DNA from: an uncultured Alphaproteobacteria bacterium
GTDB taxonomy: Bacteria; Pseudomonadota; Alphaproteobacteria; JAJTHO01; G963706365
DNA: 64,000 bases
Reading direction: 5' to 3'
Assembly: GCA_963706365.1 (NCBI GenBank)
Contig: OY970150.1
Span: 1,596,265-1,660,264 of the forward strand
Shown piece by piece: positions 1 through 58,587 of this stretch. The notes below the pieces were generated by a model, which worked only from the letters and a program-made list of their open reading frames with translations, had not been told where the DNA came from and did not search any database. Both the position numbers and the translations under genes were made by a program. How positions within the stretch are numbered: the stretch's first letter is position 1; each line of letters opens with the position of its first letter.

Positions 1-1052
1 TGCCGGTGCACCTGCGCCCTATGAATCGCGCGATGAATATGCGGAGGCCAGTGGCAGCAGGTAATGGCCTGCCTTGAACAAAAAATTTATCCGCGCGATA
101 TTGTGACACGCAAATCATTAGAAAATGCGGCCACTGTGGTGGCGGCCAGTGGTGGGTCAACCAATGCAGCCCTGCATTTGCCAGCCATTGCCCATGAAGG
201 CGGCATTGAATTTGATTTGCATGATGTGGCGGAAATTTTCCGTAAAACGCCTTATATTGCTGATCTAAAACCAGCCGGGAAATATGTAATGAAAGACATG
301 TTCGAAATTGGTGGCGTGCCGGTCTTGATGAAAGCCTTATACGACGGCGGTTTTATGCATGGTGATTGTTTGACGGTAACAGGCAAAACTATTGCTGAAA
401 ACCTGGAGGCAGTTACCTTGCCAACAGATCAGGATGTTATTTATCCAACCAGCAACCCTATTACCAAAACAGGTGGCGTGGTTGGCTTACGCGGCAATCT
501 GGCACCAGAAGGTGCTATTGTAAAAGTTGCAGGTTTGGAAACTTGCGTTTTGAAGGCGTTGCACGGGTTTTTGAATGCGAAGAAGATGCTTTTAGAGCCG
601 TAGAAAAACGCGACTATAAAGCAGGTGAAGTTTTGGTTATTCGCAATGAAGGGCCAAAAGGTGGCCCCGGTATGCGGGAAATGCTGGCCACCACCGCCGC
701 TATTTATGGCCAGGACATGGGCGATAAAGTTGCCTTGATTACAGATGGTCGCTTTAGCGGGGCAACACGTGGATTTTGTGTTGGCCATGTGGGGCCAGAA
801 GCTGTCGTGGGTGGCACCATTGGTTTGCTAAAAGATGGTGATAAAATTATTTTAGATGCAGAAAAAGGCGAACTTTCTGTTGATTTAAGTGATGCAGAAT
901 TGGCTGAACGACGCAAAAAATATCAACCGCCAAAGCCCAGTTTTGGTAGTGGCGCCATATGGCGATACGCCCAAAATGTTGGCACTGCAGAAAAAGGCGC
1001 GGTAACGCACCCGGGCGGTAAAGGGGAAATACGATGCTATAAAGATATATAA
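1..1052 (+). pseudogene. ilvD: Dihydroxy-acid dehydratase (IlvD/Edd family), 3' two-thirds only. It is cut at its 5' end by the window edge and interrupted by a frameshift near 541-552: ORF 64..603 (frame 1) and ORF 543..1052 (frame 0) together make a continuous IlvD C-terminal region.
   Basis: Frame 1 carries the IlvD motif ...[16 protein letters not shown]. Frame 0 carries [16 protein letters not shown]...[16 protein letters not shown]...[22 protein letters not shown], the conserved IlvD C-terminus. The two frames overlap at a gtttt run. Confidence 0.6.
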
Positions 1053-6654: not shown

Positions 6655-6700
6655 TAAGAACCAGTCAACTTAGAGCTTACCCCAAAACCCACGTAAGTTC
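6655..6700. repeat. Degenerate repeat copy: family B half-site (aagaaccagtcaact) followed by a family A left-arm-type sequence (agagcttaccccaaaacccacgtaagttc)
   Basis: It matches the left arm of the composite element near 53438-53470 (agagcttacaccaaaatccacgcgcaagttgaa). It lies between the purL start and the stop of the VirB6-like gene. Confidence 0.5.
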
Positions 6701-8139
6701 TAAGCCTTAGATTTACCCGCCCCTGAACTTTTTAAAGCGGATGTTAAGCGTTGGTTATACTGTTTTCTATTAGAAAAGTTTTTCGCTAAGGCGTTGCCCG
6801 CTGCTCCGCCTGTTAAACCATAAGCCGTGCTGGCGATAGTGCCGAACATTTTACTACCCAGCTCAGGAATTTTCAAAGTGTTTGACATGGATAGTGCGCG
6901 ACTGGTTAAGGCCGGTACACCGTCGACCATCGCCTTGCCGAACAGCCCAATTGTTAGCATATAAATTAGTAATTTACTGGCTAAACCTTTGGTAACAATT
7001 TCCTTGCTTTCGTAAACGTTTGCCACGCTGCCATAATCACTGTCGTTAATAACAAACACGATTAAAGCAAAAATGATAGAGACAGCGGCTGCCAAAATAA
7101 CCAGGGTGAAAGCAGAGTGAAAAAGCACTTTTAAGCCAGCGGTGGCAATATTACGGCTGACGGGGAACAGGAAGGCCACCAGCATTACGGGCGCTAAAAT
7201 TGTAATAATCGTCCATTTAAAAACCACATCAATAATGCGAAACGGTATAGCGATCATGATAGAGCCAAAAAAGTACATCATGGCCAAGGATACGGGTAAT
7301 AGAATAGGTCGCTTGGCTTCTTGGGAGCTTTGTTTTTTAAACTGATCCCACGAGTTTTGACTGGCATTACCCTGGCCACCATTATTTTTACCGGTAAATA
7401 AATCAATGCCCATTTTAAGGCCTATGCCAAGAGTTTTGGCGGTCATTTCAACGGTACATTCCAGCTGCGCTATTGCCAGGCTTTCATCAATAGGGTCAGT
7501 ATTGCCAGGATCAGACTGTTTTAATTCTCCGCTGGCTGTTATAAATTGTTCACCACAGGTAATGTCTGCTAGGTCAGGGTCATCTACTAAAGAAGCTGCC
7601 GCTGTCACCATTAATTGTGCTACTCCGGTGCCAGCAGTGGCCACAGATTCATGGATTTTCCATACAATATCCGGGCTGCGGATTAGCAATGCGACAATCA
7701 TTGCCAGTAAAATACGCATCACTATATCATTTAAAACTTTACTGCTGTTGCCCTCCATCGGCCCAAAGGCTGTTAATAGTTTACCGACCTGAAAAAGTAG
7801 CCAGATTACAAGGAAAACAGCCATAAACTCCATTAAATCTTTTTGAAGAATAGCAGATATTGTACGTGCTGATTTTCTGCTTTCCATCGCAATTTCTACC
7901 AAAGATTTCATCCAGGCGCCTTGCACCCAATCTTCTTTTTGTTCAATAACGTAGGCTGTTGCTTTGCGAGCAGGATCTTCTTCTTGCCCAACTATATTTG
8001 CCGGGGCATCCTCTTCCAGCCGGTTAAGAATTCGTTCTCTTTCCAGAAAAATCAGTTCGCCTTCGGCATTACGAGAAACATTATTTTGTGCATGGGCGGT
8101 GCTGAAACAGAATAAAATTAAAAGAAAAAGGATGCGCAT
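6700..8139 (-). CDS. VirB6/TrbL-like polytopic inner-membrane protein (short paralog) with a signal peptide
   Basis: It has a signal peptide (MRILFLLILFCFSTAHAQ) and several TM helices. The block RIIDVVFKWTIITILAPVMLVAF is paralogous to IDALIKWTVISILTPVLAG in the upstream 1365-aa gene. Its start is coupled to the upstream stop (TAATG). Confidence 0.5.
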   Translation of the reverse strand: MRILFLLILFCFSTAHAQNNVSRNAEGELIFLERERILNRLEEDAPANIVGQEEDPARKATAYVIEQKEDWVQGAWMKSLVEIAMESRKSARTISAILQKDLMEFMAVFLVIWLLFQVGKLLTAFGPMEGNSSKVLNDIVMRILLAMIVALLIRSPDIVWKIHESVATAGTGVAQLMVTAAASLVDDPDLADITCGEQFITASGELKQSDPGNTDPIDESLAIAQLECTVEMTAKTLGIGLKMGIDLFTGKNNGGQGNASQNSWDQFKKQSSQEAKRPILLPVSLAMMYFFGSIMIAIPFRIIDVVFKWTIITILAPVMLVAFLFPVSRNIATAGLKVLFHSAFTLVILAAAVSIIFALIVFVINDSDYGSVANVYESKEIVTKGLASKLLIYMLTIGLFGKAMVDGVPALTSRALSMSNTLKIPELGSKMFGTIASTAYGLTGGAAGNALAKNFSNRKQYNQRLTSALKSSGAGKSKA

Positions 8140-11100
8140 TAGCTATCTGATCCTCGGCTAGTGCTGCCTGCCATGGCCGGTTGTTTCGTGCCGGCTGTGG
8201 CGGTTGGTTTGCCAGCGGCAATTCTGTCAGATAAACTTTTGGCCAGGTTAGAATCAGATTTAGTATTGTCTAAGATATCTGTTTTGGCGCGGCGGCTGAA
8301 TGGTACAATATCATTGCGGGCATCTTGCATGTCATCAAAAATAGAACCTCTTTTGACTAAATTACCGGCATCTGCATCGGTGTTTTGTGGTTTCGGGCGT
8401 TCTGCTGTGATGCTGTCCAAGGCCATTTCGCGCTTTTCTGCTTCGCTATAGGCATTAAAGCTGTTGCGGTCTGCTGCGGTGGCGGTGGTTTTTTCCCATT
8501 CCTGTTTTTTAAATACATCGCCTGCGGCATGTCTTGCCCGGTTAGCATGAGCAGCTATATTATCAATTCTTGTGTTGGTGCCGCTGGTGGCTTGTAGGGA
8601 ATCTTTATAGTTATCAGAGACACTTTTCATTTGTGCTTTAATGGCTTGTTTATTGCTGCCAGCAACGCTGCTCATCCCGGCAATGCTTGCCACACCGGCA
8701 GCGGCCAATAAACCAGCGTTAATAGACTGTGTCTGACGATCTTCGCCCACAACATTCATATATTTTTCAACCGCTCTATCCATCTCGGCTTTATATTCTT
8801 TAACACTGCGTATCTCGCTTACATTGGCACTGGCCATGGCTTCAATACGGTCTTTCATGTAATCGTGTCTGCCTGTTGTGTCCTGTGTGCCAGCAACGGT
8901 TGTCGCCATTTTCATACTCGTGGCCTGAATTAAGGCAATATGCGCATTTTTCTCTAGTTCACGTTTTTCTTTACCACTCACAGCACCGCTTTGCAGATGG
9001 TCATTAAATTTATTTAAGCGGTCAATCAATTGATCTACATTTTGGTCATCATCGGCCAGTTGTGCAAGACGGTCTACTTGCTCTTTTTGTGTGGTGGCGG
9101 TGGGTTGGCCTGCGCGTCGCTGGGCATCAGCCATCAAGTTTAAACTTGCGTTCACGGCCTGGCGGCCAACACTTTTTCCTTTTAGAGCCTCGGTGAAATT
9201 ATCCATACCAATTTCACTGCCTAAACCGGCTCCTTCTAGAATATTGTTAGCTACATTCAGGCTTATTAAACCTGTTAATTTGGCGCCTCCCCAAGCAACC
9301 TTACCAGGTGTCACAGACGCAGCAACACTGCCAGGTATTCTTGACAGGCCTTTACCCATGGCACCAAAATATTCTTTGGTGCTGCCTACTTTATCAGCGG
9401 CAAAGGATCCCACCATAATGGCCGCCCCTAACGAAGTATTGATTGCAAATTCAACCACATTAAAGTTCTCAGCGGCATCAAACATATCATTAATCGCCTG
9501 TTTTGCTTCTTCAATTTGTTCCTGCACACGTTCTTGTAGATTGCTGATTTCTTCTTGTTTCTCTTCTTCTGTTACTTCGTTTTGTTGCAGTTCTTGTTCT
9601 TGCAATGCAATGTTTTGCTCGGTCATCTCGTCGATTTGACGATCTGCTTGTTTTAGTTCCTTAGAGGATATTTCGTCTAAAAGCTCATCATTAATTTCAC
9701 CGGCTTCTGCTATGGCTTCGGCATGTTCTGCATCAATTTCATTACCAGCCTGAACGGCATTAATGTTACCACCTGCCAAGGCTGCAACTGTTCCCATGCC
9801 CATACCTGCCATGGCTAGTGTCATAGTTTCTAATAATTCAGCTGCTTCTTCAGGATTTTCTTGCATGGCACGTGCTTGTTCTGCGGTAATACCCATTCCA
9901 GAAAGCTCGAAATCTTGCATAAAGCCATAGCCTTCTTCATAGCGGGGGCCATAACCGGCCGCCGTATCCTCCGTTCGGGGAATAGGTGCCGTAGTGTTGC
10001 CATAAGTTGCATTTTTATCGATGCCTAAGGCATTCGCCATTCCTTCCGGTAGCATAGACTGTGCAAATGGCGTTGCCACCCCGGCAACTGCGCCGCCGCC
10101 CTGTTTTAAGCCACTACCCAATAGCCCCGCCATAGAACCAAAAATCGCCATACCAATACCGCCCAAGGCAGGAGAGCCTAGAATAGTAGAGGTCATCGGG
10201 GCAATGTTTTTCATGGAATGTTTAGAAATTAAACCTGTTGCAAACAACAACCACCAGTCAACATTAGCCATAGAAACAGGCGGTGTTTTTTCTGGGGAGC
10301 CTGCACCGGCAACGCCAACCGCGCCTTCGGCTTGGTTGTAGACGATATCTGTCGGGTTTATTAGGCCGCCATTTAACCGAATCTCAAGGTGCATATGGGG
10401 GCCTGTTCCTATGCCGGTATTCCCAATTAAACCGACAACCGCACCGGCCCCTACTGTTTGACCGGCCGATGATAGTATTTTACTAAGGTGACAATACTTT
10501 GTTTCATACCCATCCTGATGGTCAATTTTAACCATATTACCACATCCACCCCCTACATTTTCAGCTACAAGAATCACTCCGGGTTTCATTGATAATTGTT
10601 TAGCACCAGCATCACAGCCTATATCAATACCGCCGTGGCGTCTGGTGCAATAAGAACGACACGCGCCCCATTTCTGTCCGCCATGCGTTCCGGGGGTACA
10701 CATTGTTTTATAATCATTCGCATCAATAGGAAATGTCCAGCCTGACCCCATAGGAAGTTCGTTTATAAGAGTTCCTGATTCACTACCATCAGCTTGTAAT
10801 AGTGTATCATAATATTCTAGCGTCTCTTTACGGGCATGCGTATATTCATCGACAGCGCCGCTGGCCGCGTAATCCTCGTAAATAGGTAATGCTGCAACAG
10901 GCTCATTCGGGTTAGAAATAGCCGGATCAACGCCATCTTCCACACCGTCTTCCGGTGTTCCATTCTCAGCGGCTTCGGCAGCTTCCGCATTTTCAATTTG
11001 TTCTTTAACGACCTCGGGAAAGGCATTAAACGCACCGGCCAGGGCAGATTCTGCGGTAGTTAAACGAATAACCGCATAGTGCACCATATGGCTTAGCAAT

Positions 11101-12236
11101 ACGGCAATGATGGCGGCAATAATAAAATTTAGGGCGGATTCCAGCACAACCTTGTAACCCAAAACAGCAAATTTTCGGGTAGAAGGGAAACAGGCACAAC
11201 CGGCTAGCACCGGTGTTAAAATACTAATAACTGTCCATTTAATCAGGGCATCAATCACCATCACTGAAAATAACAGGATAGGCAGAATAAACATGATGAT
11301 TAGTAACCCACCGGAAAATTTCCCGTCCCAGCTTCCATAACTACTAAACGTATGTATACCAACAGCCAGCCCATAGGAAAAGGCGCGTTGCAAGGTATGG
11401 ATCTGGCATTCCAGTTTATCCTTCATCAGGTGTTTTTCATTGGGTTCGCCATTAACGGTACTCATGCCCTCTAGGGCGGTTAAGTTAGTTGCATAACAAC
11501 CACGATCCCCTTTGTCCGGGTCAGAGCCCTGGTATCGTGCTTTATAAAGAAGAGAATCCTTTGGGCTGCCTTCTGTAATTATATCATAACCAAAATCAAT
11601 CCCACCACTTACCACCGGTTTATAGACATATTCCCAGTAAATATTATAACCACTGGCTGTAAAAGTGCCGACAACAAACAGAACCAGCATAACACGCACG
11701 AAAATGCTATTGCCGATATTGGCAATGCCGTTACTCGCGCCAAACGGCATCAAAATTTTAATAACCTGCCACATTATCCATAAGGCGAGTATGATGGCCA
11801 ATAGCTGCATAAATTTATCGCCGGCTTTATCCATCATTTCCGGTGGGTAAAGCATGGCCGCGGTAAAAATATGCGCGGCTATGGGGCAGACAAAACAGAA
11901 TTTCGACAAATTACCCTGAATTTCGCCAACAGATTTTTTGGCACCAGGGTCAGCAGCAACCATTTTGGTGCCATCATCACTTTGTGGAGTGCCTGCCCCT
12001 CCGTCTTGTGTTGTACTATCAGCAGGATCTAGCGTAGGGTCTTCCTCTGATGGTGTTTGACTTCCTCTTGTCTCGTTTCCCAGATTACTACCGTCCTGGC
12101 CAGGGTTGGCCGCATCATTATTGGCCTCAACATTATCCTGAGCATAAGCATCGCCAGAAAAACAGAGCATCAAGCAGCAAAAAATAACGAATAAAATGTG
12201 TCTAATCCGATACCTTTCCTGCTCTAAGTGATTCAT
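8139..12236 (-). CDS. Large VirB6/TrbL-like membrane protein with an embedded M23 (LytM-type) metallopeptidase domain and a long Gly-rich and coiled-coil C-terminal extension
   Basis: It is 1365 aa. A signal peptide and an acidic region precede the TM segments. A TrbL-like core spans about aa 110-390. The M23 motifs are HGGID (H-x3-D) and GNTGIGTGPHMHLEI (HxH), at about aa 495-630. Coiled-coil and Gly-zipper segments follow, running from about aa 640 to the C-terminus. Confidence 0.55.
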   Translation of the reverse strand: MNHLEQERYRIRHILFVIFCCLMLCFSGDAYAQDNVEANNDAANPGQDGSNLGNETRGSQTPSEEDPTLDPADSTTQDGGAGTPQSDDGTKMVAADPGAKKSVGEIQGNLSKFCFVCPIAAHIFTAAMLYPPEMMDKAGDKFMQLLAIILALWIMWQVIKILMPFGASNGIANIGNSIFVRVMLVLFVVGTFTASGYNIYWEYVYKPVVSGGIDFGYDIITEGSPKDSLLYKARYQGSDPDKGDRGCYATNLTALEGMSTVNGEPNEKHLMKDKLECQIHTLQRAFSYGLAVGIHTFSSYGSWDGKFSGGLLIIMFILPILLFSVMVIDALIKWTVISILTPVLAGCACFPSTRKFAVLGYKVVLESALNFIIAAIIAVLLSHMVHYAVIRLTTAESALAGAFNAFPEVVKEQIENAEAAEAAENGTPEDGVEDGVDPAISNPNEPVAALPIYEDYAASGAVDEYTHARKETLEYYDTLLQADGSESGTLINELPMGSGWTFPIDANDYKTMCTPGTHGGQKWGACRSYCTRRHGGIDIGCDAGAKQLSMKPGVILVAENVGGGCGNMVKIDHQDGYETKYCHLSKILSSAGQTVGAGAVVGLIGNTGIGTGPHMHLEIRLNGGLINPTDIVYNQAEGAVGVAGAGSPEKTPPVSMANVDWWLLFATGLISKHSMKNIAPMTSTILGSPALGGIGMAIFGSMAGLLGSGLKQGGGAVAGVATPFAQSMLPEGMANALGIDKNATYGNTTAPIPRTEDTAAGYGPRYEEGYGFMQDFELSGMGITAEQARAMQENPEEAAELLETMTLAMAGMGMGTVAALAGGNINAVQAGNEIDAEHAEAIAEAGEINDELLDEISSKELKQADRQIDEMTEQNIALQEQELQQNEVTEEEKQEEISNLQERVQEQIEEAKQAINDMFDAAENFNVVEFAINTSLGAAIMVGSFAADKVGSTKEYFGAMGKGLSRIPGSVAASVTPGKVAWGGAKLTGLISLNVANNILEGAGLGSEIGMDNFTEALKGKSVGRQAVNASLNLMADAQRRAGQPTATTQKEQVDRLAQLADDDQNVDQLIDRLNKFNDHLQSGAVSGKEKRELEKNAHIALIQATSMKMATTVAGTQDTTGRHDYMKDRIEAMASANVSEIRSVKEYKAEMDRAVEKYMNVVGEDRQTQSINAGLLAAAGVASIAGMSSVAGSNKQAIKAQMKSVSDNYKDSLQATSGTNTRIDNIAAHANRARHAAGDVFKKQEWEKTTATAADRNSFNAYSEAEKREMALDSITAERPKPQNTDADAGNLVKRGSIFDDMQDARNDIVPFSRRAKTDILDNTKSDSNLAKSLSDRIAAGKPTATAGTKQPAMAGSTSRGSDS
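10347..10754 (-). other. M23 peptidase catalytic domain within the 1365-aa VirB6-like protein
   Basis: The sequence TRRHGGIDIGCDAG ... YCHLS ... GNTGIGTGPHMHLEIRLNGG is the canonical LytM/lysostaphin-type zinc-binding motif set. Confidence 0.8.
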
Positions 12237-12243
12237 ATCACAT

Positions 12244-12272
12244 ATTTTATATTGATTTTATCAAATTTGCAA
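12244..12272 (-). promoter_or_regulatory. Candidate sigma70-like promoter for the VirB6-like operon: TTGCAA, 17 nt, TAAAAT, ending about 7 nt before the ATG, so the transcript would be leaderless or nearly so
   Basis: On the minus strand the sequence is ttgcaa atttgataaaatcaata taaaat atgtgat ATG. No SD-like sequence precedes the start codon. Confidence 0.25.
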
Positions 12273-18126: not shown

Positions 18127-18546
18127 CTACAGTTTCATAACACTGTTGCTCCATTCTTCTTTAAGTGCTTCTTGTTGTTTATCGACAATCACTAAGCGGC
18201 GTTGAATAATTTTGCGTTGAATAGCTTTTACAACCACCGGAACAGTGAAAACCACTAGCCAGCCAATACCGGCATAGCCATAAATAATTAGCCATGTTAA
18301 GCTGTCGGAAACCACCTTCATACCGGCATCCATATCTTGCCCTATGGGAATGAGATCCATCATATAAGGTACAATGCCGGCCATATTAAAAAAAGCGACA
18401 GTTTTAGGAATACTTCCGTTGCTGCGCGTGTCGCTAAATTTGGCGGCCAATGTTGGCACCAGGCCAATGAACAGCAAAATGGCCGCGGGTATAGACGCCA
18501 CGGCAATCATGATAACTAGTAGTAGAATCAGTATATTACTTTTCAT
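18127..18546 (-). CDS. Small hypothetical inner-membrane protein, translationally coupled to the upstream kinase-like gene by a 4-nt overlap
   Basis: It is 139 aa with 3-4 predicted TM helices. It has no recognisable domain. Confidence 0.4.
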   Translation of the reverse strand: MKSNILILLLVIMIAVASIPAAILLFIGLVPTLAAKFSDTRSNGSIPKTVAFFNMAGIVPYMMDLIPIGQDMDAGMKVVSDSLTWLIIYGYAGIGWLVVFTVPVVVKAIQRKIIQRRLVIVDKQQEALKEEWSNSVMKL

Positions 18547-20558
18547 CTTAAAGCGATTAGCCCTAAAGTTAGTAGCCCTGCCAACCCGCCAGAAACATAT
18601 GGTGCGTATTGGTCAGAAATTCTTCTAGATATAATCGGAAGTTGCTCCATTTCTCCTAATAGCTGTTCTTTCTTTTTTTCAAGGTTTTGGTAAACATTTT
18701 GTGCACGGCCAAATTCTTCGGAATCTTTCGCCAGCTCAATTGGCTGATCAACAATATTATGAATTTGGATTAAGCTGGCTTTCTTTTTTAATTTATCTAG
18801 TTGGTTGCGCACCAAGTTTTGTCTGGTTTTACTGTGATACAAGCCAATCATGGGGGCAGAAACTTTTAACAGCCATTTACATAGATAAGGGTAGTCCGCC
18901 TTGTTACTATAGGCATTTTCAAGCATACCCAATATTTGTACATTAGCCAAAGCAACTTTAGCCTTATTTTCATGCGCGGTTAAATTATAAAGCGTAACAT
19001 CTTTTATTTTATTGGTGTGGCTAACAAGAAAAGCGGCGATATGGCGGTCTATAGGCCAAAGTTTATGGTTGCTTTCTACTTTGGCAATTTCTTCTAAAGC
19101 ATCTAAAAGCTCTGCGGGGTTTCTTACCAGGTATTTTTCAAAGAGGGGGCTTTGGCACGGCAAGGTTTTATTAAGCTCATATAGGCAACGTTCAAAACCC
19201 ATGCCATAAGCTGTTTTATTGGCTATCAAGGATAGTTTTTCATATATTTTTTGAAGTATGATAAAGTTACTCAGATTATTGGAAGATCGACGCACCAGAT
19301 GAATGCGAAATTCCATAAAATGGCTTAGAATCAAATCAAATGGAATCATACGGCTAACAGCATCATGCTGATGCGCGGCCAATGCATCACAGATACCGTC
19401 TGTTGCGATAACCTTTTTTTGATAATAGATAGGCATATGATGGTCTATGCCACTTAATGCAAAAGTCGTTGTAACGTTTTGTTGAATGGAGGTGGGGGAT
19501 CTTTTAGAACGGTTTATACCATCCCTTAAATCGGTGTAGGCCGTTTTTTGATTGTTACTACGTACCAACCAGTTTTCCATATCTTTACTGGCTAGAATAC
19601 TTAGGGTATCTTTATTGTTATCCGTTACATTGGTACCAATGGCATTCACTAATTGGGCAACGCTAACATGATCCTTTTTTTGATAGAAAAAAGGACGCGT
19701 GGCTCTTCGGGCCGCCTGATTGTGGCGTAACGGCACTTTTTGCCCGGCTGCCCAGTCATCAACATCATTCAGTGTCCAGCGCTGTCGAGTATCGTCATTT
19801 AAGGTGCCTTTTAGTAATTCTGTTAAACGTTCAGAAAGGCGATATTCTCCTAAGAAAGCAGACAAGCTATTGCTTATAAGTCTTTGTTCTTGTAATATCT
19901 CCAGATTTTTTACCTGGCTAAAATCTTTACCAATGGCCATAGAAAGAACGACCATTCCCAGGCTAAAAATATCATGGCTTACTGTACCAGCGCCTCTGGC
20001 TTCGGAATCACATAAGCTGCTTTCCACCGGTTCATAAGGCTTTGGTTGTTTATAGCCGGGCGGCAACATGTAACACTCACCAAAGGTCAGATGATTTTGG
20101 AAAAAATACAGGTTATCGGGTCTTAAGCTGCGATAACTGATGCCTTTAGAATCAAAATCTCTAAGCAGGCGGACAAAGGGCTTAATAATCAATTCTGTAA
20201 TAGATTCTTCCCGATACTTAACGCCCCGCCCATCTTTTGTTAAGGGCAGCGGCACGCCTTTTGGTTTGACAGTAATAACCAAAATTCGATAGCGTTTTTC
20301 GCCCGGTAATAAAACCGGGAAATACTTTAATGGTCGCATAAGCATTTGCATATTACTGTGCGATAATTTTTCTAAAACAGTGTGGCGCGGCGGTAAAGTA
20401 GGGTGGCTGATTAAGCCAAGATATTCAGTAGTTTCTGTTTTAACAATGTGCGCCTGTATTAAATCAGTGCTGAATTTTTCCAGCGGTTTACCCAGCTGGA
20501 CGCTGTAAATTTTATCCAGCTGCGTAACAGCATTTTCTTTTAAGGCGATGGCGCGCAT
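18543..20558 (-). CDS. Hypothetical protein with a degenerate protein-kinase-like N-terminal region (pseudokinase-like) and a C-terminal membrane anchor
   Basis: ISYRSLRPDNLYFF resembles the HRDLKPxN catalytic loop, but the catalytic Asp is replaced by Ser. TFGECY resembles DFG. SHDIFSLGMVVLSMAIG resembles kinase subdomain IX (DxWSxG). The C-terminus is hydrophobic (GGLAGLLTLGLIAL). The N-lobe is shorter than in canonical eukaryotic protein kinases. Confidence 0.3.
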   Translation of the reverse strand: MRAIALKENAVTQLDKIYSVQLGKPLEKFSTDLIQAHIVKTETTEYLGLISHPTLPPRHTVLEKLSHSNMQMLMRPLKYFPVLLPGEKRYRILVITVKPKGVPLPLTKDGRGVKYREESITELIIKPFVRLLRDFDSKGISYRSLRPDNLYFFQNHLTFGECYMLPPGYKQPKPYEPVESSLCDSEARGAGTVSHDIFSLGMVVLSMAIGKDFSQVKNLEILQEQRLISNSLSAFLGEYRLSERLTELLKGTLNDDTRQRWTLNDVDDWAAGQKVPLRHNQAARRATRPFFYQKKDHVSVAQLVNAIGTNVTDNNKDTLSILASKDMENWLVRSNNQKTAYTDLRDGINRSKRSPTSIQQNVTTTFALSGIDHHMPIYYQKKVIATDGICDALAAHQHDAVSRMIPFDLILSHFMEFRIHLVRRSSNNLSNFIILQKIYEKLSLIANKTAYGMGFERCLYELNKTLPCQSPLFEKYLVRNPAELLDALEEIAKVESNHKLWPIDRHIAAFLVSHTNKIKDVTLYNLTAHENKAKVALANVQILGMLENAYSNKADYPYLCKWLLKVSAPMIGLYHSKTRQNLVRNQLDKLKKKASLIQIHNIVDQPIELAKDSEEFGRAQNVYQNLEKKKEQLLGEMEQLPIISRRISDQYAPYVSGGLAGLLTLGLIALR

Positions 20559-26275: not shown

Positions 26276-29200
26276 ATGAAAATCAATGCTATTTATGAAG
26301 TTCCAAAGAACGGAATTACAGTAAAAAACGGTGCTGATGGAACATCCTATTATAGATCAACAGAGGGGGATGATTTACAAAGTACTGATAACTGGGCAAT
26401 TAAAGATACAACTGGTCTATTTAGCGCTGTTCCAGAAGTTGTTAGTTTTCATTTTCAACTTAGTGATTTACATAGTTATGATGAGTTTTCAGCAAATGCA
26501 ACTAAAGACTACTTTGTTGTTTATGCCGATAAAACAATAAAAGTTGATAAAGCTAATGCTCCTGAAAATGCAGGTTACAAAAACTCCCATTATAGAACTG
26601 CGTATTACATTAGCAAGAAAGAGGCTGAGAAGTATGAAATTAAAACACCAGACGAATTTTTAGAATATTGCAACAGATTTACGGGCACTGCCCATAATCA
26701 AGGTATGTATGACATTAACCCTGATGAGCAAAATTTGGCTCAAGGATATGTTGCCACTTTTGCTAAAACTGCATCTGGAAAACTAAAAGATTGGCCAAAA
26801 GAAAAGCCAGCGGCTGAACGAGAGGCTTTTGAAGAAGAGGTTGTTTTAGAGTCAGATATAGAATCCTTAAAAAATACATCTACACAAGATCTCCGCCGCA
26901 GAATTTTATTTGATGCTGAGCAGTCTGAAAAAGATGAAATAGCTGTGGTTTTGGTTGATAGGGCGCTAAATATTATTAAAGACAGAGGCTTAGAAGATTA
27001 TACATTTTTAAACCGCGGTGATGAAATTGCAAATATTCACTCTGCCCTCGCAAACGCTTATAAAGCTGATTTGCAAGGGAGCAGAAGAGCCGATATTGGT
27101 TTTAAAAGTAGCACTGATAGATTTGTTGAGGATTTACAATATATTTTACATGCGGTGAATGACTTAACTAAGTCTTCGTTTCAAGATAGAATTGCCGAAA
27201 TATCATCTACTTCTAATGAGGTTGGTAGTCCGGAATCAGAAGTTGAACCTATGTCCACGGAAAGGATATCTGAGCCTGATGATGTAACTCACACTATAGA
27301 TCTTGAAGCTGACACATCGACAAAAACAGTCAAAAAAAATATAATTTCTCGCGTCTGGGATAGCACTGTAGGGAAAATTTTAATTGGTTTAGGGCTTGTT
27401 TCAGGGGCAACGTCAATTGGCTACAAAGCGATAGATTCAGCTATGAAATCTACACCAACAGCTCCTGCGCAAAGCGAGCCAAATATAGAACAGCCTTACG
27501 AGCAACCAGTCGCTGAATCAGTTCCTACAACGCCAGAGGAAATCGTTGAAGAATATAGTCTTAATGAATTCAATGCTTTGACAAGGGAGTCTGAACTCAT
27601 TCCTGATGGAAATACCTTTGTCTACCAAGATGGCGAATTAGTTGCTGAAATTAGCAATAGTGACTATGATAAGCTATCAGGTCTTTATACCCAACGAGAA
27701 CTGTCTTTATCTAACACTGATACTCAACCGTACTCTGAGCCATTTATTGAAAGTTCAGAAAGTACAGTGAATTTTGAAAAATTACAAGATACCATACCCT
27801 CAGAAATTGAAACAATTGCACCAGATGTAGCCGATGCTCAGGAACTAGAAATTGCTGATATTAAGAAAATGCAACAAGGTTTGCAAAAGGCGGCAAACCG
27901 TCTTGAAGAAGCCCGGCAAGCTTCTAATGTTGGTGGTTTCAGGTTTGAAGGATTGCAAGAGTTTTCTGGAATAGAAAATATGAATTCTGCTGAATTGCAG
28001 CAAGTTTTAGAGAGTGGTGCAGAACTTCATTCAGCGTTCAGCAGCGAGCAAGGGGCAAAAGATTTCCTTTACCATGTTGCAAGCCAAAGTGATGGTCAGC
28101 TAACATCTGATGAAATTGATTATATCCAAGGCTTGAAAGGTGAAGTGCAGCATATTACAGCCGCTGTTGAGCATGCACAAAAATCAGTAGACGAAAGCAC
28201 CGCTGCTTTTGCTGATGCTGCTGAGACTTTAAATAAAAGTGGTTTTGAAGATGTCAAAGCAGACGACCTTGTCGCAATAATGGATAGTCACGCCAATTCC
28301 AATGCAGGCGGACAGGGGATAGACCTGATGCACAACATACAGCAAGAGTTAACTTCCAATCTATCGGCTTATGAACAACAACAATTAAGCTCTCTTGCAC
28401 CTAATTCCGTTTCAAATGATTCATTTGCGCATGCTTCTGCTGATGGCAGCATACATGGTTTTACGCAAAATAATTACCAAGCGCCATTAGCTGGCCAAAG
28501 ATTGGCATGGCAGTTGGAGACGAAAATGGCGCAGGCGGGAGAAGCTTTGCAAACTGCGGGTGAAAAATTGGGTAATTTGTGGGAAAATACCGCTGGTCAA
28601 TTGTCGAGCGAGCAATGGGCAGTTGTTGGTAAAGTTGGCGGATTCGCTGCATCTGCTGCTTTTACAGCAGCCTCAATGCGCCGCTTGTCACAACAAGAGG
28701 AAACAACCAGAACCCAGCGTGTTAACTTTGCGGGCAGCATGGCACGTACAACGCTGATGGGTGTGGGTTTTGCAAACCCCATGGCTATGGCTGCTGCTGG
28801 TGTTGTGGGTGGTGCAACAAAGGTTTGGTCACTTGCACAGGAAGAAACTCTTCAACAGTTGCAATCTTCAAAAGAAAATTTAACAGCAAAACGTATAGAT
28901 ATCCATGAAACAAAATCTACTGGTGTGCTAAGTGGTTTGCATAATACTTTTGCAAAAACATCCAATAGTGTCAAACTAGGTATGACCAACGCACAATTAA
29001 CTGTTTCACAACCTTTAAATGCATCGCGGCAGGTAACAGAAGCGGTGGCAACTGATGCTGCTAATAAAATTGCAACAGGCGTTGACTCTATTCATAGTAT
29101 GGCTCCACAAGATGGTGCGCTAGCCAATTTTATCGTAAAAAAATCAACAGGCACTTTACAGGCTGTAACCGATTTAGGAAAAGAAACAGGCGGCATGTTC

Positions 29201-38258: not shown

Positions 38259-39351
38259 GTGTTGATTGATGTAACGGAAACAGTGAATGCTGTAGAAGAG
38301 TCGCTGGCTCTTTTAAGGAGGCGGCTTTGACCCTGAATCAACAAAACAGCAGCTTCTAGAGCTTGATAAAAAAGCAAATGCCCCTGATCTTTGGGATAAC
38401 CCTGAGTTAGCACAGGAAGTTTTACAAGAACGCACACGCCTAGAAAAATCTTTAAGTGGCTATCAGTCGCTTGTACAGCAATTAGAAGATCAGCAGGAAC
38501 TGCTGCAAATGGCGCAAGAGGAAGATGATGAAGATACGGCAAAAGAAGCCGTAGAGGGGCTTTGTAAATTACAGGAAACCGCCCGAAGAAAACAACTGGA
38601 AGCGATGCTCTGTGGTGAGGCGGACGGTAACAATTGTTACTTATCTGTAAATTCCGGTGCAGGGGGAACAGAAGCGCAAGATTGGGCTTTGATGATTTTA
38701 CGGATGTATTTGCGTTGGGCAGAGGCGCATGGCTATAAAGTGGAGACTCTGGAAGAATCAGATGGTGATGAAGCTGGTATTAAATCAGCCACTGTAGAAA
38801 TAAAGGGCGAAAATGCTTACGGCTGGCTACGCAGTGAATCTGGCGTGCATCGTCTGGTAAGAATTTCACCCTTTGATAGCAGTGCGCGGCGGCATACCAG
38901 TTTTTGTTCTGTATGGGTTTCGCCAGTGGTGGACGAAAAAATTGATATTGTGGTGGAAGACAAGGATTTGCGGGTGGACACCTACCGAGCCAGTGGTGCA
39001 GGGGGGCAACATATTAACAAAACGGATTCTGCCATTCGTATTACGCATTTACCCACCAATATTGTGGTGCAATGCCAGAGCGATCGCTCCCAACATCGTA
39101 ACAGGGCACAGGCGATGCAAATGTTAAAAGGCCGTTTGTATGAACTGGAACTGCAAAAACGCCAGGCCGAAGCTGATGCCACCGAAGCGGGTAAGACAGA
39201 TATTGGCTGGGGGCATCAAATACGCTCCTATGTTCTGCATCCCTATCAAATGGTAAAGGATTTGCGAACCAATGAAGAGACTAGTAATACGCAAGCAGTT
39301 TTAGACGGTAATATTGATTTATTTTTAGCCGCCAGCCTAAGCCAAGATTAA
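38259..39351 (+). CDS. prfB: Peptide chain release factor 2 with a programmed +1 ribosomal frameshift. Frame 0 runs from about 38259 to the CTT at about 38327, then shifts +1 over the TGA and continues in the frame of ORF 38509..39351.
   Basis: The site is tta AGGAGG cgg CTT TGA C: an SD-like element, a 3-nt spacer, then CUU UGA C. The upstream short frame reads ...VNAVEESLALLRRRL. Downstream are DPESTKQQLLELDKK..., SPFDS and GGQHVN, the GGQ motif. Confidence 0.85.
38316..38331 (+). promoter_or_regulatory. prfB autoregulatory +1 frameshift site (internal SD AGGAGG plus CTT TGA C)
   Basis: The motif, the SD spacing and the frame relationship (0 to +1) all match the canonical RF2 recoding site. 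Confidence 0.85.
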
Positions 39352-56599: not shown

Positions 56600-57027
56600 T
56601 TTATGCGTTTGTGTAAAAGGTAGTCTAGGCCAAACTTGCCGCTACCCTGTGTGAAAATTATAGCGGTCAATAGCATCCAATAGTAATGCTCTGTTGTGTT
56701 GGGGTAAACCAATGTTTCAATAACTAATGACATCACAAACAAGCCTAATGCCGCAACAGGTGTAAATAAGCCAATAATTAATAAGGAGGGTAATATAAGT
56801 TCACCCGCTGTACCCAAATAAGCCGCCAGTTCATAGGGTATAATTGGCAAAGAATATTCAAAATCGAACAAAGCCAACGTACCTTCCCAATCTTTTAATT
56901 TTAATAGGCCAGCTTTTAAAAACACATTGGCAATCCACAATCTGGCAGCCAGTAGAGCGATGGACTGCAATAGATAGGGTGCAATAGTAAGCGATGGCTT
57001 GGTAGCTAAGCACAATAATTTTTTCAT
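56584..57027 (-). CDS. DoxX family membrane protein (bufferin operon accessory, BufD-like)
   Basis: It is a DoxX-like four-TM protein of 147 aa. It sits in an operon with DUF2063, DUF692 and DUF2282. Confidence 0.7.
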   Translation of the reverse strand: MKKLLCLATKPSLTIAPYLLQSIALLAARLWIANVFLKAGLLKLKDWEGTLALFDFEYSLPIIPYELAAYLGTAGELILPSLLIIGLFTPVAALGLFVMSLVIETLVYPNTTEHYYWMLLTAIIFTQGSGKFGLDYLLHKRINCTSA

Positions 57028-57758
57028 AACTTTTCCTGTGTGGTGAAAACACCGTTGTTGATGATATGCGCGAACAGTTGCTGGAACAGTTGCGGTTCAG
57101 TAGTTTGTTGTAAGGTCGTTTGCAAAGCTGTTAAAAAAGGTGATTGAAGCATTACTTTTTTCAGAAAAATTAACGTGATAGCATCAACTGGCAACATCAT
57201 TATAATGTCTTTTTGATTGCGCCATACCAGTAAATGATTCTTACCTGTTGTTAGAGAAATCTCGGGCACCGGGGATTGTTGATGGGCTTGCCATATTTCC
57301 AGGGCGTTATGCTCTAAAATTAATAAATGGGCAGAAGGATGCAGGTGTAATGTATCAGCAGCTGTTAAGAAGGATAGTTTTTCAAAACCAATGGCCAAAG
57401 CATCTTTTGCGGTGCCTGCATCAGCATAGGCATACTCTAGTGTTGCGATATCGCCTAGATAGGGTAAGTCAGTGCTATCTTGTTTTAGAAATGCTGCAAA
57501 GCCTTGCCCCACGCTGTTAGAATGCCCTAATGTTTGGGGGGATTGTTTGATATATTTTTGAGCCAGCTGCTGAAAATAATGCTCTCCCACAATTTGCTGT
57601 GTTGCTGGAAATATATTTTGTAATACATTTGTCATACCTAATAAGACATTGTTTTGATAAATATTTAATCGCTCAATGGGGGAGGCTAATGAGGTTTCTA
57701 TGGTTGATGAGCCTTGAAATATATCACGCAAAAAGTCTTGCTGTAATTTAGCTAGCAT
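57024..57758 (-). CDS. DUF2063 protein (BufC-like partner of the MNIO enzyme)
   Basis: Its position immediately downstream of, and overlapping, the DUF692 gene is the conserved gene order of bufferin/MNIO operons. Confidence 0.6.
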   Translation of the reverse strand: MLAKLQQDFLRDIFQGSSTIETSLASPIERLNIYQNNVLLGMTNVLQNIFPATQQIVGEHYFQQLAQKYIKQSPQTLGHSNSVGQGFAAFLKQDSTDLPYLGDIATLEYAYADAGTAKDALAIGFEKLSFLTAADTLHLHPSAHLLILEHNALEIWQAHQQSPVPEISLTTGKNHLLVWRNQKDIIMMLPVDAITLIFLKKVMLQSPFLTALQTTLQQTTEPQLFQQLFAHIINNGVFTTQEKL

Positions 57759-58587
57759 GGGTGACCTTTTGAAAAGAACGGTTATGATTTGCTAAAATAG
57801 CATCCGCTTTCGCTGCCTCTTTTAACAAAATATCAATATCAGGAATATCCGTATCCCATTCAATAAGTGTCGGAACAGTGCCAAATTTTTCTATCGTATA
57901 CTGATACAATAGCCAGACACTATCGTGCACTGTTTTGCCGTGTGTATCGAGATATATTTCCTCTCCATTAGCCAATTTATTCACCTGGTAACCAGCTAAA
58001 TGGATTTGATCAATTTTTTGAATGGTATCTATATAGGCGTTGGCATCGTAGCCAAGGTTATGGGCGCTTACGGCAATATTATTAATATCGAGTAACAGGC
58101 CACAGCCAGTTTTATCTGTTAAAATATTCAAAAATTCTGGCTCAGAATACTTTGTTTCTTTGAAAGCAATGTAATTAGAGGGATTTTCAATTAAAATTTC
58201 TCGACCAATAAATTTCTGAAATTGTTGAATATGCTTTATAAATATATTCAAGGATTCATCAATAAAAGGAATAGGCAGTAGGTCAGGAACATGCCGGTGA
58301 TTATAGCTGCTCCAGCTTAAGTGCTCGGAAACAAATAGTGGGTCAATATCATCAACCAGAGATTTTAATTCGGTTAAATGTTGTTCTTCCAAGCCGCTGG
58401 CGTCCCCCAAAGAAAGGCCGACACCATGCAAACTAATGGGGTAATGTTGCCTTAGCTGTTTCAGTTGTTTGCGCGGTTTACCACCCCCAAAATAGTTTTC
58501 GCTGTGTACCTCCAAAAAACCTACATCATAGGCTTTTTCAAGAAAGTCTTGTTTATGCGGCGCACGCAAACCTATACCGGTTTTCAT
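57748..58587 (-). CDS. DUF692 (UPF0276) multinuclear non-heme iron oxidative enzyme (MNIO, BufB-like)
   Basis: MKTGIGLRAPHKQDFLEKAYDVGFLEVHSENYF is the typical DUF692 N-terminus. The fold is TIM-barrel xylose-isomerase-like. Confidence 0.8.
   Translation of the reverse strand: MKTGIGLRAPHKQDFLEKAYDVGFLEVHSENYFGGGKPRKQLKQLRQHYPISLHGVGLSLGDASGLEEQHLTELKSLVDDIDPLFVSEHLSWSSYNHRHVPDLLPIPFIDESLNIFIKHIQQFQKFIGREILIENPSNYIAFKETKYSEPEFLNILTDKTGCGLLLDINNIAVSAHNLGYDANAYIDTIQKIDQIHLAGYQVNKLANGEEIYLDTHGKTVHDSVWLLYQYTIEKFGTVPTLIEWDTDIPDIDILLKEAAKADAILANHNRSFQKVTHAS

Follow-up and report, generated by a model that had tools for sequence, protein, structure and literature searches.

VirB6 is the central platform of type IV secretion systems (T4SSs), a pentamer that sits at the base of the stalk and binds VirB5 and VirB2. 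In classical T4SSs, peptidoglycan is opened by VirB1-type lytic transglycosylases, which are separate proteins. In the rvh system the rvhB6 array directly follows rvhB3-rvhB4, and a payload or delivery role has been proposed for certain Anaplasmataceae proteins of the extended VirB6 kind. Multi-copy RvhB6 counts among the defining features of the rvh T4SS (PMC11077975). The extra domains of extended VirB6 proteins have no known role according to a review (PMC12857230). In VirB6 of plasmid R388, only helices alpha1 and alpha2 lie in the membrane and the remainder is periplasmic (PMC9259494). We searched the literature for VirB6 or TrbL fused to M23 or another peptidoglycan hydrolase and found none; the literature on extended VirB6 likewise yielded no member with a peptidoglycan hydrolase domain. 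Here we describe a pair of VirB6-like genes in a 64-kb window, the whole stretch of alphaproteobacterial DNA that was analysed, of which the larger encodes an M23 peptidase domain.

The gene pair and the predicted fold of its products

The two open reading frames singled out by an earlier sequence-only reading of this DNA were both recovered, on the minus strand (Table 1). The stop codon of the large gene and the start codon of the small gene have one base in common, within ...AGCTAATGCGC..., and this overlap suggests coupled translation, as that reading had proposed. We found that the cores of the two proteins align with 25% identity over about 400 aa (BLASTP, E=7e-23), and that the aligned region includes the ID...KWT block by which the pair had been recognized (IDAL-IKWTVISILTPV in the large protein, IDVVFKWTIITILAPV in the small one); by sequence comparison the two cores are paralogous. 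Both N-termini are signal-peptide-like (...GDAYA/QDN in the large protein, ...STAHA/QNN in the small one), and hydropathy indicates several hydrophobic helices in each protein, in keeping with the signal-peptide plus polytopic architecture described before.

The assignment of both products as VirB6/TrbL-like membrane proteins also held. Profile comparison with Pfam TrbL/VirB6 (PF04610) placed the small protein above the cut-off of 25.9 bits (3.5e-10, 40.4 bits), but the large protein fell just under it (4.2e-05, 23.8 bits). Orthologues of the large protein clear the same cut-off (44.5 bits in L006, 34.8 in P0012, and 30.3, 29.8 and 27.1 bits), and TrbL matches 76 of the 150 top family members (E<=1e-3). 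In structure models of both proteins some seven long helices are bundled in the manner of TrwI, the VirB6 of R388, and on these models both have the VirB6 fold; the models are of monomers and carry no information on pentamers or a heteromer. Family profiles searched against PDB sequences recovered no VirB6, and tblastn against 72,556 plasmids gave no match.

Table 1. Features of the gene pair, by position in the window
Feature	Position	Strand	Description	Basis
Large gene, 1365 aa	8139..12236	(-)	VirB6-fold core behind a putative signal peptide; M23 peptidase inserted ahead of a conserved C-terminal helix; long tail without conservation	
Small paralogue, 479 aa	6700..8139	(-)	VirB6-fold core (~aa 61-375) behind a putative signal peptide (aa 1-17); conserved C-terminal helix, then a short basic end rich in Gly	
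TAATG stop/start overlap of both genes	8137..8141	(-)		Sequence; same overlapping arrangement in L003-L008
Promoter-like TTGCAA-17-TAAAAT	12244..12272	(-)	Directly upstream of large gene	Consensus match only
Putative signal peptide of large protein, aa 1-32	12141..12236	(-)	...GDAYA/QDN	Read from sequence; hydrophobic segment 9-33
N-terminal linker, aa 33-104	11925..12140	(-)	Low-complexity, Gly/Asp/Thr/Pro-rich; presumably periplasmic	Composition
VirB6-fold helical core, aa 105-424	10965..11924	(-)	CxxC (C114, C117), YWxYxYxPVV, LECQ...AFSYGLA, IDALIKWT..LTP, FPSTR	
Acidic low-confidence linker, aa 425-520	10677..10964	(-)		AF2 pLDDT <50; composition
M23/LytM metallopeptidase domain, aa 521-645	10302..10676	(-)	H534, D538, H583, H614, H616	
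Conserved post-insertion helix and Gly-zipper-like hydrophobic stretch, aa 655-720	10077..10274	(-)	WWLLFATGLIS...; possible last membrane pass	Column alignment with non-fusion members; AF2 pLDDT 77-95
Non-conserved tail, aa 721-1365	8142..10076	(-)	Gly/Ala-rich stretches, acidic helix-prone block, polar C-terminus	Composition
Acidic helix-prone block in tail, aa 831-930	9447..9746	(-)		Composition

The inserted peptidase, the tail and their probable topology

The full LytM/M23 zinc-peptidase motif set reported earlier is present in the large protein: Pfam Peptidase_M23 matches aa 533-628 (5.2e-25), and all motif residues are kept. Besides matching the profile, the domain has the LytM fold, the zinc site made up of HxxxD and HxH, and the catalytic histidine, as in the catalytically active M23 subgroup (PF01551). 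It looks catalytically intact, and 12 other fusion proteins likewise keep every zinc ligand and catalytic histidine. The helix that follows it shares alignment columns with the FW..L..IGL helix found directly after the core in non-fusion members, and M23 is therefore inserted within the family architecture. The peptidase had been described as lying after the transmembrane core, which is correct, but it sits inside the family fold, ahead of the conserved C-terminal helix.

A further 720 aa (646-1365) follow the M23 domain, previously described as a Gly-rich and coiled-coil tail of about 730 aa. Gly and Ala make up 30% of residues 646-830 and 31% of residues 931-1040, and residues 831-930 contain 31% Asp and Glu with a net charge of -25; coiled-coil character is judged by composition only. 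The tail has no homologue within the family and no PHROG or Pfam match.

A classical transmembrane count with the positive-inside rule was ambiguous and could put the C-terminus of the core in the cytoplasm; applying the rule to the whole family alignment did not decide the topology. From the putative signal peptides of both proteins and from four Cys conserved across the family, we read the core and the M23 domain as lying on the periplasmic side. The segment after M23 is of marginal hydropathy in the large protein (maximum 1.49) and TM-grade in relatives, and the tail of one relative, P0119, has a J domain with HPD motif (31.5 bits); on these two grounds the tail is probably cytoplasmic.

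Relatives and genomic context

When either protein or a 9-sequence alignment served as query, word-indexed homology searches yielded nothing beyond the query itself or unrelated M23 proteins, and metagenome scans gave nothing or two weak partial matches only. The family was recovered only by exhaustive HMMER search, which found 310 relatives of the core profile among 1.84 billion proteins. Those with a name belong to Holosporales or to unclassified Alphaproteobacteria MAGs, and not to Rickettsiales, whose RvhB6 the sequence-only reading had given as an example. The M23 fusion and the large-then-small gene order are common to about ten cluster representatives and five MAG loci (Holosporales or Alphaproteobacteria), and the order is accompanied by the overlap in L003-L008 and on the P0017 contig. 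The fusion of M23 to the VirB6 fold, as judged from these sequences, defines a small clade beyond one genome. It had been called unfamiliar, which agrees with the literature that we searched, but it is not confined to this locus.

The number of VirB6-like copies varies, with two in tandem here, three in L005 and L006, and two cores fused in L007. The enzyme varies as well. For example, P0013 has NlpC/P60 at the place of M23, P0113 has YkuD at its N-terminus, and one family member has an SLT domain by Pfam; the presence of these domains in other members points to selection for a cell-wall enzyme in the family. The N-terminal domain of P0061 resembles SLT by eye and was rejected, having no Pfam match.

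The 64-kb window encodes no VirB2-5, VirB7-11 or VirD4, and neither do the flanks of ten related loci, covered to a distance of about 10 kb; not even VirB4 accompanies the pair there. About 50 ORFs of the window were scanned and every one with a match was a housekeeping gene, in agreement with the earlier observation that no other T4SS gene is present; the family HMM matched only the two ORFs of the pair. Upstream lies a divergent 173-aa ORF without homologue and without counterpart in related loci, and purL lies downstream. Across 11 contexts the sole conserved unit is the array of VirB6-like paralogues, amid lipid A, purine, flagellar, chemotaxis and other housekeeping genes; no neighbour family is conserved across the related loci besides the lpxI-lpxB-unknown genes of one sub-lineage. 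Phage genes are likewise absent from the window and from the ten related loci.

Interpretation and comparison with known systems

The pair is a variant of the extended-VirB6 kind, and the reading that we favour, at somewhat better than even chances, is a platform of VirB6 type equipped with a periplasmic peptidoglycan endopeptidase of its own, which would do the job of VirB1. Such a platform might serve a T4SS encoded elsewhere or work by itself. The two VirB6-fold inner-membrane proteins would be made together and would probably co-assemble, each anchored by its first two helices, with the remaining long helices forming a periplasmic platform by analogy with R388 TrwI/VirB6. The large subunit would hold an apparently active M23 zinc endopeptidase in its last periplasmic segment, ahead of the conserved C-terminal helix, and the insertion would place a cross-link-cutting enzyme right at the platform, where it could open peptidoglycan locally for whatever structure stands on it. 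The helix after M23 probably re-crosses the membrane, in which case the tail, 680 aa long, acidic and rich in Gly and Ala, would be a cytoplasmic scaffold specific to the lineage. A channel subunit with its own peptidoglycan-remodelling activity was one of three options offered by the sequence-only reading, and it fits best, given that other cell-wall enzymes are found in relatives within the family.

The most serious competitor, to which we give roughly half the credence of the platform reading, is that the VirB6 fold was exapted into a stand-alone chromosomal envelope machine of Holosporales-like Alphaproteobacteria, built of tandem paralogues with their own peptidoglycan endopeptidase (M23 here; NlpC/P60, SLT or YkuD in relatives), in genomes without any cognate T4SS. 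Its job might then be peptidoglycan remodelling itself, for growth, division, shape or the passage of another appendage. The conservation of nothing but the paralogue array among housekeeping neighbours favours this possibility, as do the great distance of the family from plasmid and PDB VirB6 sequences and the fusions to four different cell-wall enzyme families. Against it, we know of no function of the VirB6 fold outside T4SSs. Moreover, Rickettsia is an example of a host-associated alphaproteobacterium whose T4SS genes are dispersed (PMC2653234), and the missing T4SS neighbours are therefore weak evidence. If true, the stand-alone machine would be the first VirB6-fold function outside type IV secretion.

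We consider it improbable, though possible, that the part that matters for function is the tail, in line with the effector-like extension offered by the sequence-only reading; it would be exposed or cut off and would reach a host cell as payload, with M23 only aiding wall crossing. The tail is long, fast-evolving and lineage-specific, the J domain of P0119 could also act on host Hsp70, Holosporales are a largely host-associated group, and extended-VirB6 domains lack an assigned role (PMC12857230); however, the conserved hydrophobic helix between M23 and the tail suggests a cytoplasmic side, neither cleavage site nor secretion signal was identified, and the Gly/Ala-rich, acidic-helix composition gives no enzymatic clue. 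It is very unlikely that M23 lacks catalysis and acts as a regulator of LytM type, recruiting or activating amidases, since the degenerate LytM factors EnvC and NlpD lack the zinc ligands and catalytic histidines that are kept here and in the other fusion proteins. The chance is slighter still for the third option of the sequence-only reading, in which a membrane protein has captured a phage tape-measure-like module, or for a prophage remnant. Tape-measure proteins do contain M23 domains and regions that are Gly-rich or coiled-coil, but the PHROG tape-measure families match only aa 527-639, PHROG matches altogether cover only aa 522-643 in the M23 part, and the tail alone has no match; 2.9 million IMG/VR contigs contain no relative, and the gene pair is kept in chromosomal housekeeping contexts. 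We rejected this module on these grounds and on the lack of nearby phage genes, the very test that the reading had set for it.

Returning to the platform reading, the proteins resemble TrwI/VirB6 of R388 (PDB 7O3V) and the TrbL/VirB6 family in fold at a sequence identity of 8-12%. They differ from TrwI and that family in having a signal peptide of the cleaved type followed by an N-terminal linker, four Cys that are conserved, the inserted peptidase and the 680-aa tail, and in being encoded by tandem paralogues without neighbouring T4SS genes. RvhB6 of Rickettsia, VirB6-1 to -4 of Anaplasmataceae and DotA of Legionella, the latter being the second-best structural match, are likewise tandem multi-copy VirB6-like genes with large, poorly conserved hydrophilic extensions without known role. 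The present locus has such tandem genes with variable flanking extensions, but it is not contiguous with rvhB3-rvhB4 in a Rickettsiales genome; the rvhB6 array stands beside other T4SS genes, whereas none is nearby here. This consistent lack of T4SS neighbours may mean that these bacteria, which are little studied and for the most part host-associated, have a system derived from VirB6 that does something else.

The peptidase can be compared with two groups of enzymes. Housekeeping M23 DD-endopeptidases (MepM, ShyA, Csd1-3, NMB0315) are periplasmic proteins, either soluble or with a single membrane pass, whose partner domains are LysM or coiled coils; unlike the peptidase of the large protein, none of them forms part of a polytopic protein with the VirB6 fold. 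VirB1-type hydrolases (VirB1 SLT; PrgK, TraG and Orf14 in Gram-positives) are separate proteins, whereas the peptidase here is part of a VirB6-like subunit; VirB1 cuts glycan strands, while an M23 endopeptidase, predicted here and intact-looking, would cut peptides. Here one extra domain of an extended VirB6 has a readable, though predicted, biochemical identity, that of a cell-wall endopeptidase, and by the R388 structure its site would correspond to the periplasmic base of the stalk. This raises the testable idea of a trans-envelope machine that carries its own wall-opening activity, as opposed to one that relies on a separate VirB1.

The tandem pair and its peptidase domain

The two VirB6-like genes overlap by a single base, the final A of the TAA that stops the 1365-aa ORF also serving as the A of the ATG that starts the 479-aa ORF. 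Their products are 25% identical over ~400 residues (E=7e-23), a region that includes the block quoted in the sequence-only reading of this DNA, and both have signal-peptide-like N-termini, ending AYA|Q or AHA|Q, and several strongly hydrophobic helices. The Pfam TrbL/VirB6 model matches the small protein at 40.4 bits, exceeding the 25.9-bit cut-off, and the large protein at 23.8 bits, slightly under it. The earlier description of the pair (coordinates, TAATG overlap, paralogy, signal peptides, VirB6/TrbL-like architecture and M23 domain) was confirmed as written.

Peptidase_M23 was found at aa 533-628 of the large protein (5.2e-25). The NCBIfam models matching over this domain were only those of M23 endopeptidases and LytM factors (MepM, ShyA, Csd/Pgp, DipM), all far under their full-length cut-offs, while three marginal matches in the tail were at chance level. 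The zinc-peptidase motif set that had been claimed for this domain is complete, comprising H534 and D538 (HxxxD), H583, and H614 and H616 (HxH), and these residues vary little or not at all among 13 aligned fusion proteins. The domain therefore differs from degenerate LytM regulators and, judged from its residues, looks active.

In the family-wide alignment, the helix behind the M23 domain (DWWLLFATGLISKHSMKN...) shares columns with a conserved 'FW.L..IGL...' helix, which comes straight after the core in members that lack a fusion, the small paralogue among them. This correspondence shows that the M23 domain, or NlpC/P60 in one relative, is an insertion, with the core's last helix before it and a C-terminal helix of ancestral origin behind it. 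After the M23 domain lie 720 residues with Gly/Ala-rich stretches and a block, aa 831-930, in which Asp and Glu make up 31%. The Gly-rich and acidic parts described earlier are confirmed by composition, and the coiled coil, judged from composition, is putative. No homologue of the tail was found, the VirB6-like family included, and it has no match in Pfam or PHROG; in this it resembles the variable flanks seen in other extended VirB6 proteins.

Relatives and their cell-wall enzyme fusions

Word-indexed homology searches found no relatives. When a profile built from both cores was run exhaustively with HMMER against 1.84 billion cluster representatives, 310 proteins matched at E<=1e-3. Among the best 150 of these, 76 match TrbL and 8 match M23. 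A distinct clade scores >300 bits with its own HMM, as compared to <=166 bits for every other family member, and eight of its representatives have the core followed by M23 (P0008, P0009, P0012, P0015, P0016, P0017, P0096 and P0119). The M23 domain of P0119 is divergent, and its tail carries a J domain with the HPD motif (DnaJ, 31.5 bits vs a 27.8-bit cut-off). P0013 has a core nearly identical to that of P0015, with NlpC/P60 in the place of M23, P0113 has a YkuD L,D-transpeptidase domain at its N-terminus, and one wider-family member contains an SLT domain (3.7e-11). The membrane core has repeatedly been joined to cell-wall enzymes of four different families, an argument for wall remodelling as one part of what it does. 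Found in some 10 cluster representatives and in 5 MAG loci, the fusion is not a one-off, but it is rare and occurs only in uncultured Alphaproteobacteria of Holosporales-like type.

Throughout the family four Cys are conserved, two of them forming a CxxC where helix 1 starts and the other two lying in the long loop. In the large protein the CxxC is at aa 114/117; it has been lost from the small paralogue here.

Genomic contexts

The flanks of the pair are housekeeping genes. The downstream neighbour, on the strand of the pair itself, is purL; the upstream side begins with a divergent orphan ORF of 173 aa, beyond which are iPGM and gltX; farther out are genes for malic enzyme, an RlpA-like protein, nadE, recA, degP, lpdA, mfd, purF, mdh, dapD, an AmpD-like amidase and others. 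The window has no tRNA and no Rfam match, and the family HMM, run on all six frames, matches the two ORFs only. No other T4SS gene, as had been stated before, and no phage gene was found within the 64 kb. Both proteins are also present on a 1.87-Mb contig in NCBI/ENA, and the locus is therefore part of the chromosome of a small genome.

When one genome from each GTDB species was scanned, five loci emerged, each in a MAG that bears the label 'Alphaproteobacteria bacterium' or 'Holosporales bacterium'. In all four with the region downstream of the large gene (L003-L006; L002 ends within that gene), a 1204-1600-aa gene is followed by an overlapping 426-454-aa gene, the orthologue of our small protein (E=1e-32 to 1e-41). 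A third VirB6-like paralogue follows in L005 and L006 and is missing from the window; L007 has a fusion of the second with the third. L006 and L007 are next to lpxD-fabZ-lpxA-lpxI-lpxB, ksgA, surA and pdxA, L008 is next to ispH and a peptidase, and the P0017 contig has fliP and others. More distant members are likewise in housekeeping DNA: two tandem paralogues and then purS in L011, which recalls purL here, and lone genes beside hfq, heptosyltransferase, che and fli genes in L012 and L014. When all ORFs of these loci were compared with one another, the VirB6-like family was the only one common across lineages, and VirB3, VirB4, VirB8-11 and VirD4 were found in none of them.

Coordinates of features in the window and in related loci
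Feature	Location	Position (strand)	Remark
Large protein	window	8139..12236 (-)	1365 aa
Small paralogue	window	6700..8139 (-)	479 aa
CxxC and loop Cys	window	about 11400..11900	large protein
Dehydratase, ilvD/edd type	window	64..1052 (+)	apparently split, overlapping frames 64..603 and 543..1052; could be frameshift or pseudogene
671-aa protein	window	18543..20558 (-)	weak sub-threshold protein-kinase match (22 bits vs 31.7-bit cut-off); 139-aa orphan ORF overlaps its start
1002-aa ORF	window	26276..29284 (+)	no Pfam match; lowest-GC stretch (0.366 vs about 0.43); may be foreign or lineage-specific
prfB (RF2)	window	38240..39351 (+)	N-terminus missing in frame
Classical +1 programmed frameshift site	window	38325	prfB; AGGAGG then CTTTGAC
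MbnB/TglH/ChrH (DUF692) gene adjoining DUF2063 gene	window	57024..58587 (-)	putative RiPP-type precursor-modification pair
P0119	L009	837..4424	
Third paralogue	L005	12246..14180	
Third paralogue	L006	14715..16655	
Fused second and third paralogues	L007	7061..9595	844 aa, two cores
Conserved 283-364-aa protein	L005	6313..7170	no Pfam match; between lpxB and the large gene in one sub-lineage; missing from window
Same	L006	8854..9705	
Same	L007	2376..3470	
Same	L002	1366..2403	

Proposed topology, alternatives and known systems

The structure of R388 VirB6 shows seven long helices, with alpha1 and alpha2 alone embedded in the inner membrane and the others building the stalk's pentameric base on the periplasmic side (PMC9259494; PMC12857230). 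This topology, mapped onto both proteins, would agree with the signal peptide and periplasmic N-terminal linker, with the four conserved Cys and with the periplasmic location that a wall-cutting enzyme needs. Behind M23 comes a hydrophobic helix that reaches TM grade in most relatives and is marginal in the large protein here (1.49); it is followed by Lys or Arg and so would return the chain to the cytoplasm. A cytoplasmic location of the tail agrees with the J domain that P0119 has there. Counting by the positive-inside rule gave an ambiguous topology. We therefore propose a platform of VirB6 type in which the co-translated paralogues probably form a heteromer; its M23 domains would be held at the periplasmic rim and may cut peptide cross-links locally, the role of a separate VirB1 lytic transglycosylase in classical systems (PMC2653234).

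An exapted VirB6 working in a T4SS-independent machine is a possible but less probable reading; T4SS neighbours are wholly absent in 11 contexts, which favours it, but related host-associated bacteria have scattered T4SS genes and our search covered local contexts only. That the tail is a delivered or exposed effector-like module, as had also been suggested, seems improbable, and a non-catalytic LytM regulator in place of an enzyme is unlikely because the active site appears intact. The tape-measure-like or prophage origin once entertained was rejected, given the absence of phage genes from the window and related contexts, of PHROG matches to the tail and of relatives in IMG/VR.

In full-text searches we found no report of a fusion that joins VirB6 or TrbL with M23 or with any peptidoglycan hydrolase, and a 2025 review gives the roles of extended-VirB6 domains as unknown (PMC12857230). 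To be encoded with a T4SS is one of the features that define VirB6/TrbL proteins; no other T4SS gene is encoded locally here, and the two proteins are therefore classed as VirB6-fold or VirB6-like rather than as demonstrated T4SS subunits. Structurally the pair belongs with VirB6/TrbL, and it resembles both the 'extended', multi-copy VirB6 proteins of Rickettsiales and DotA.
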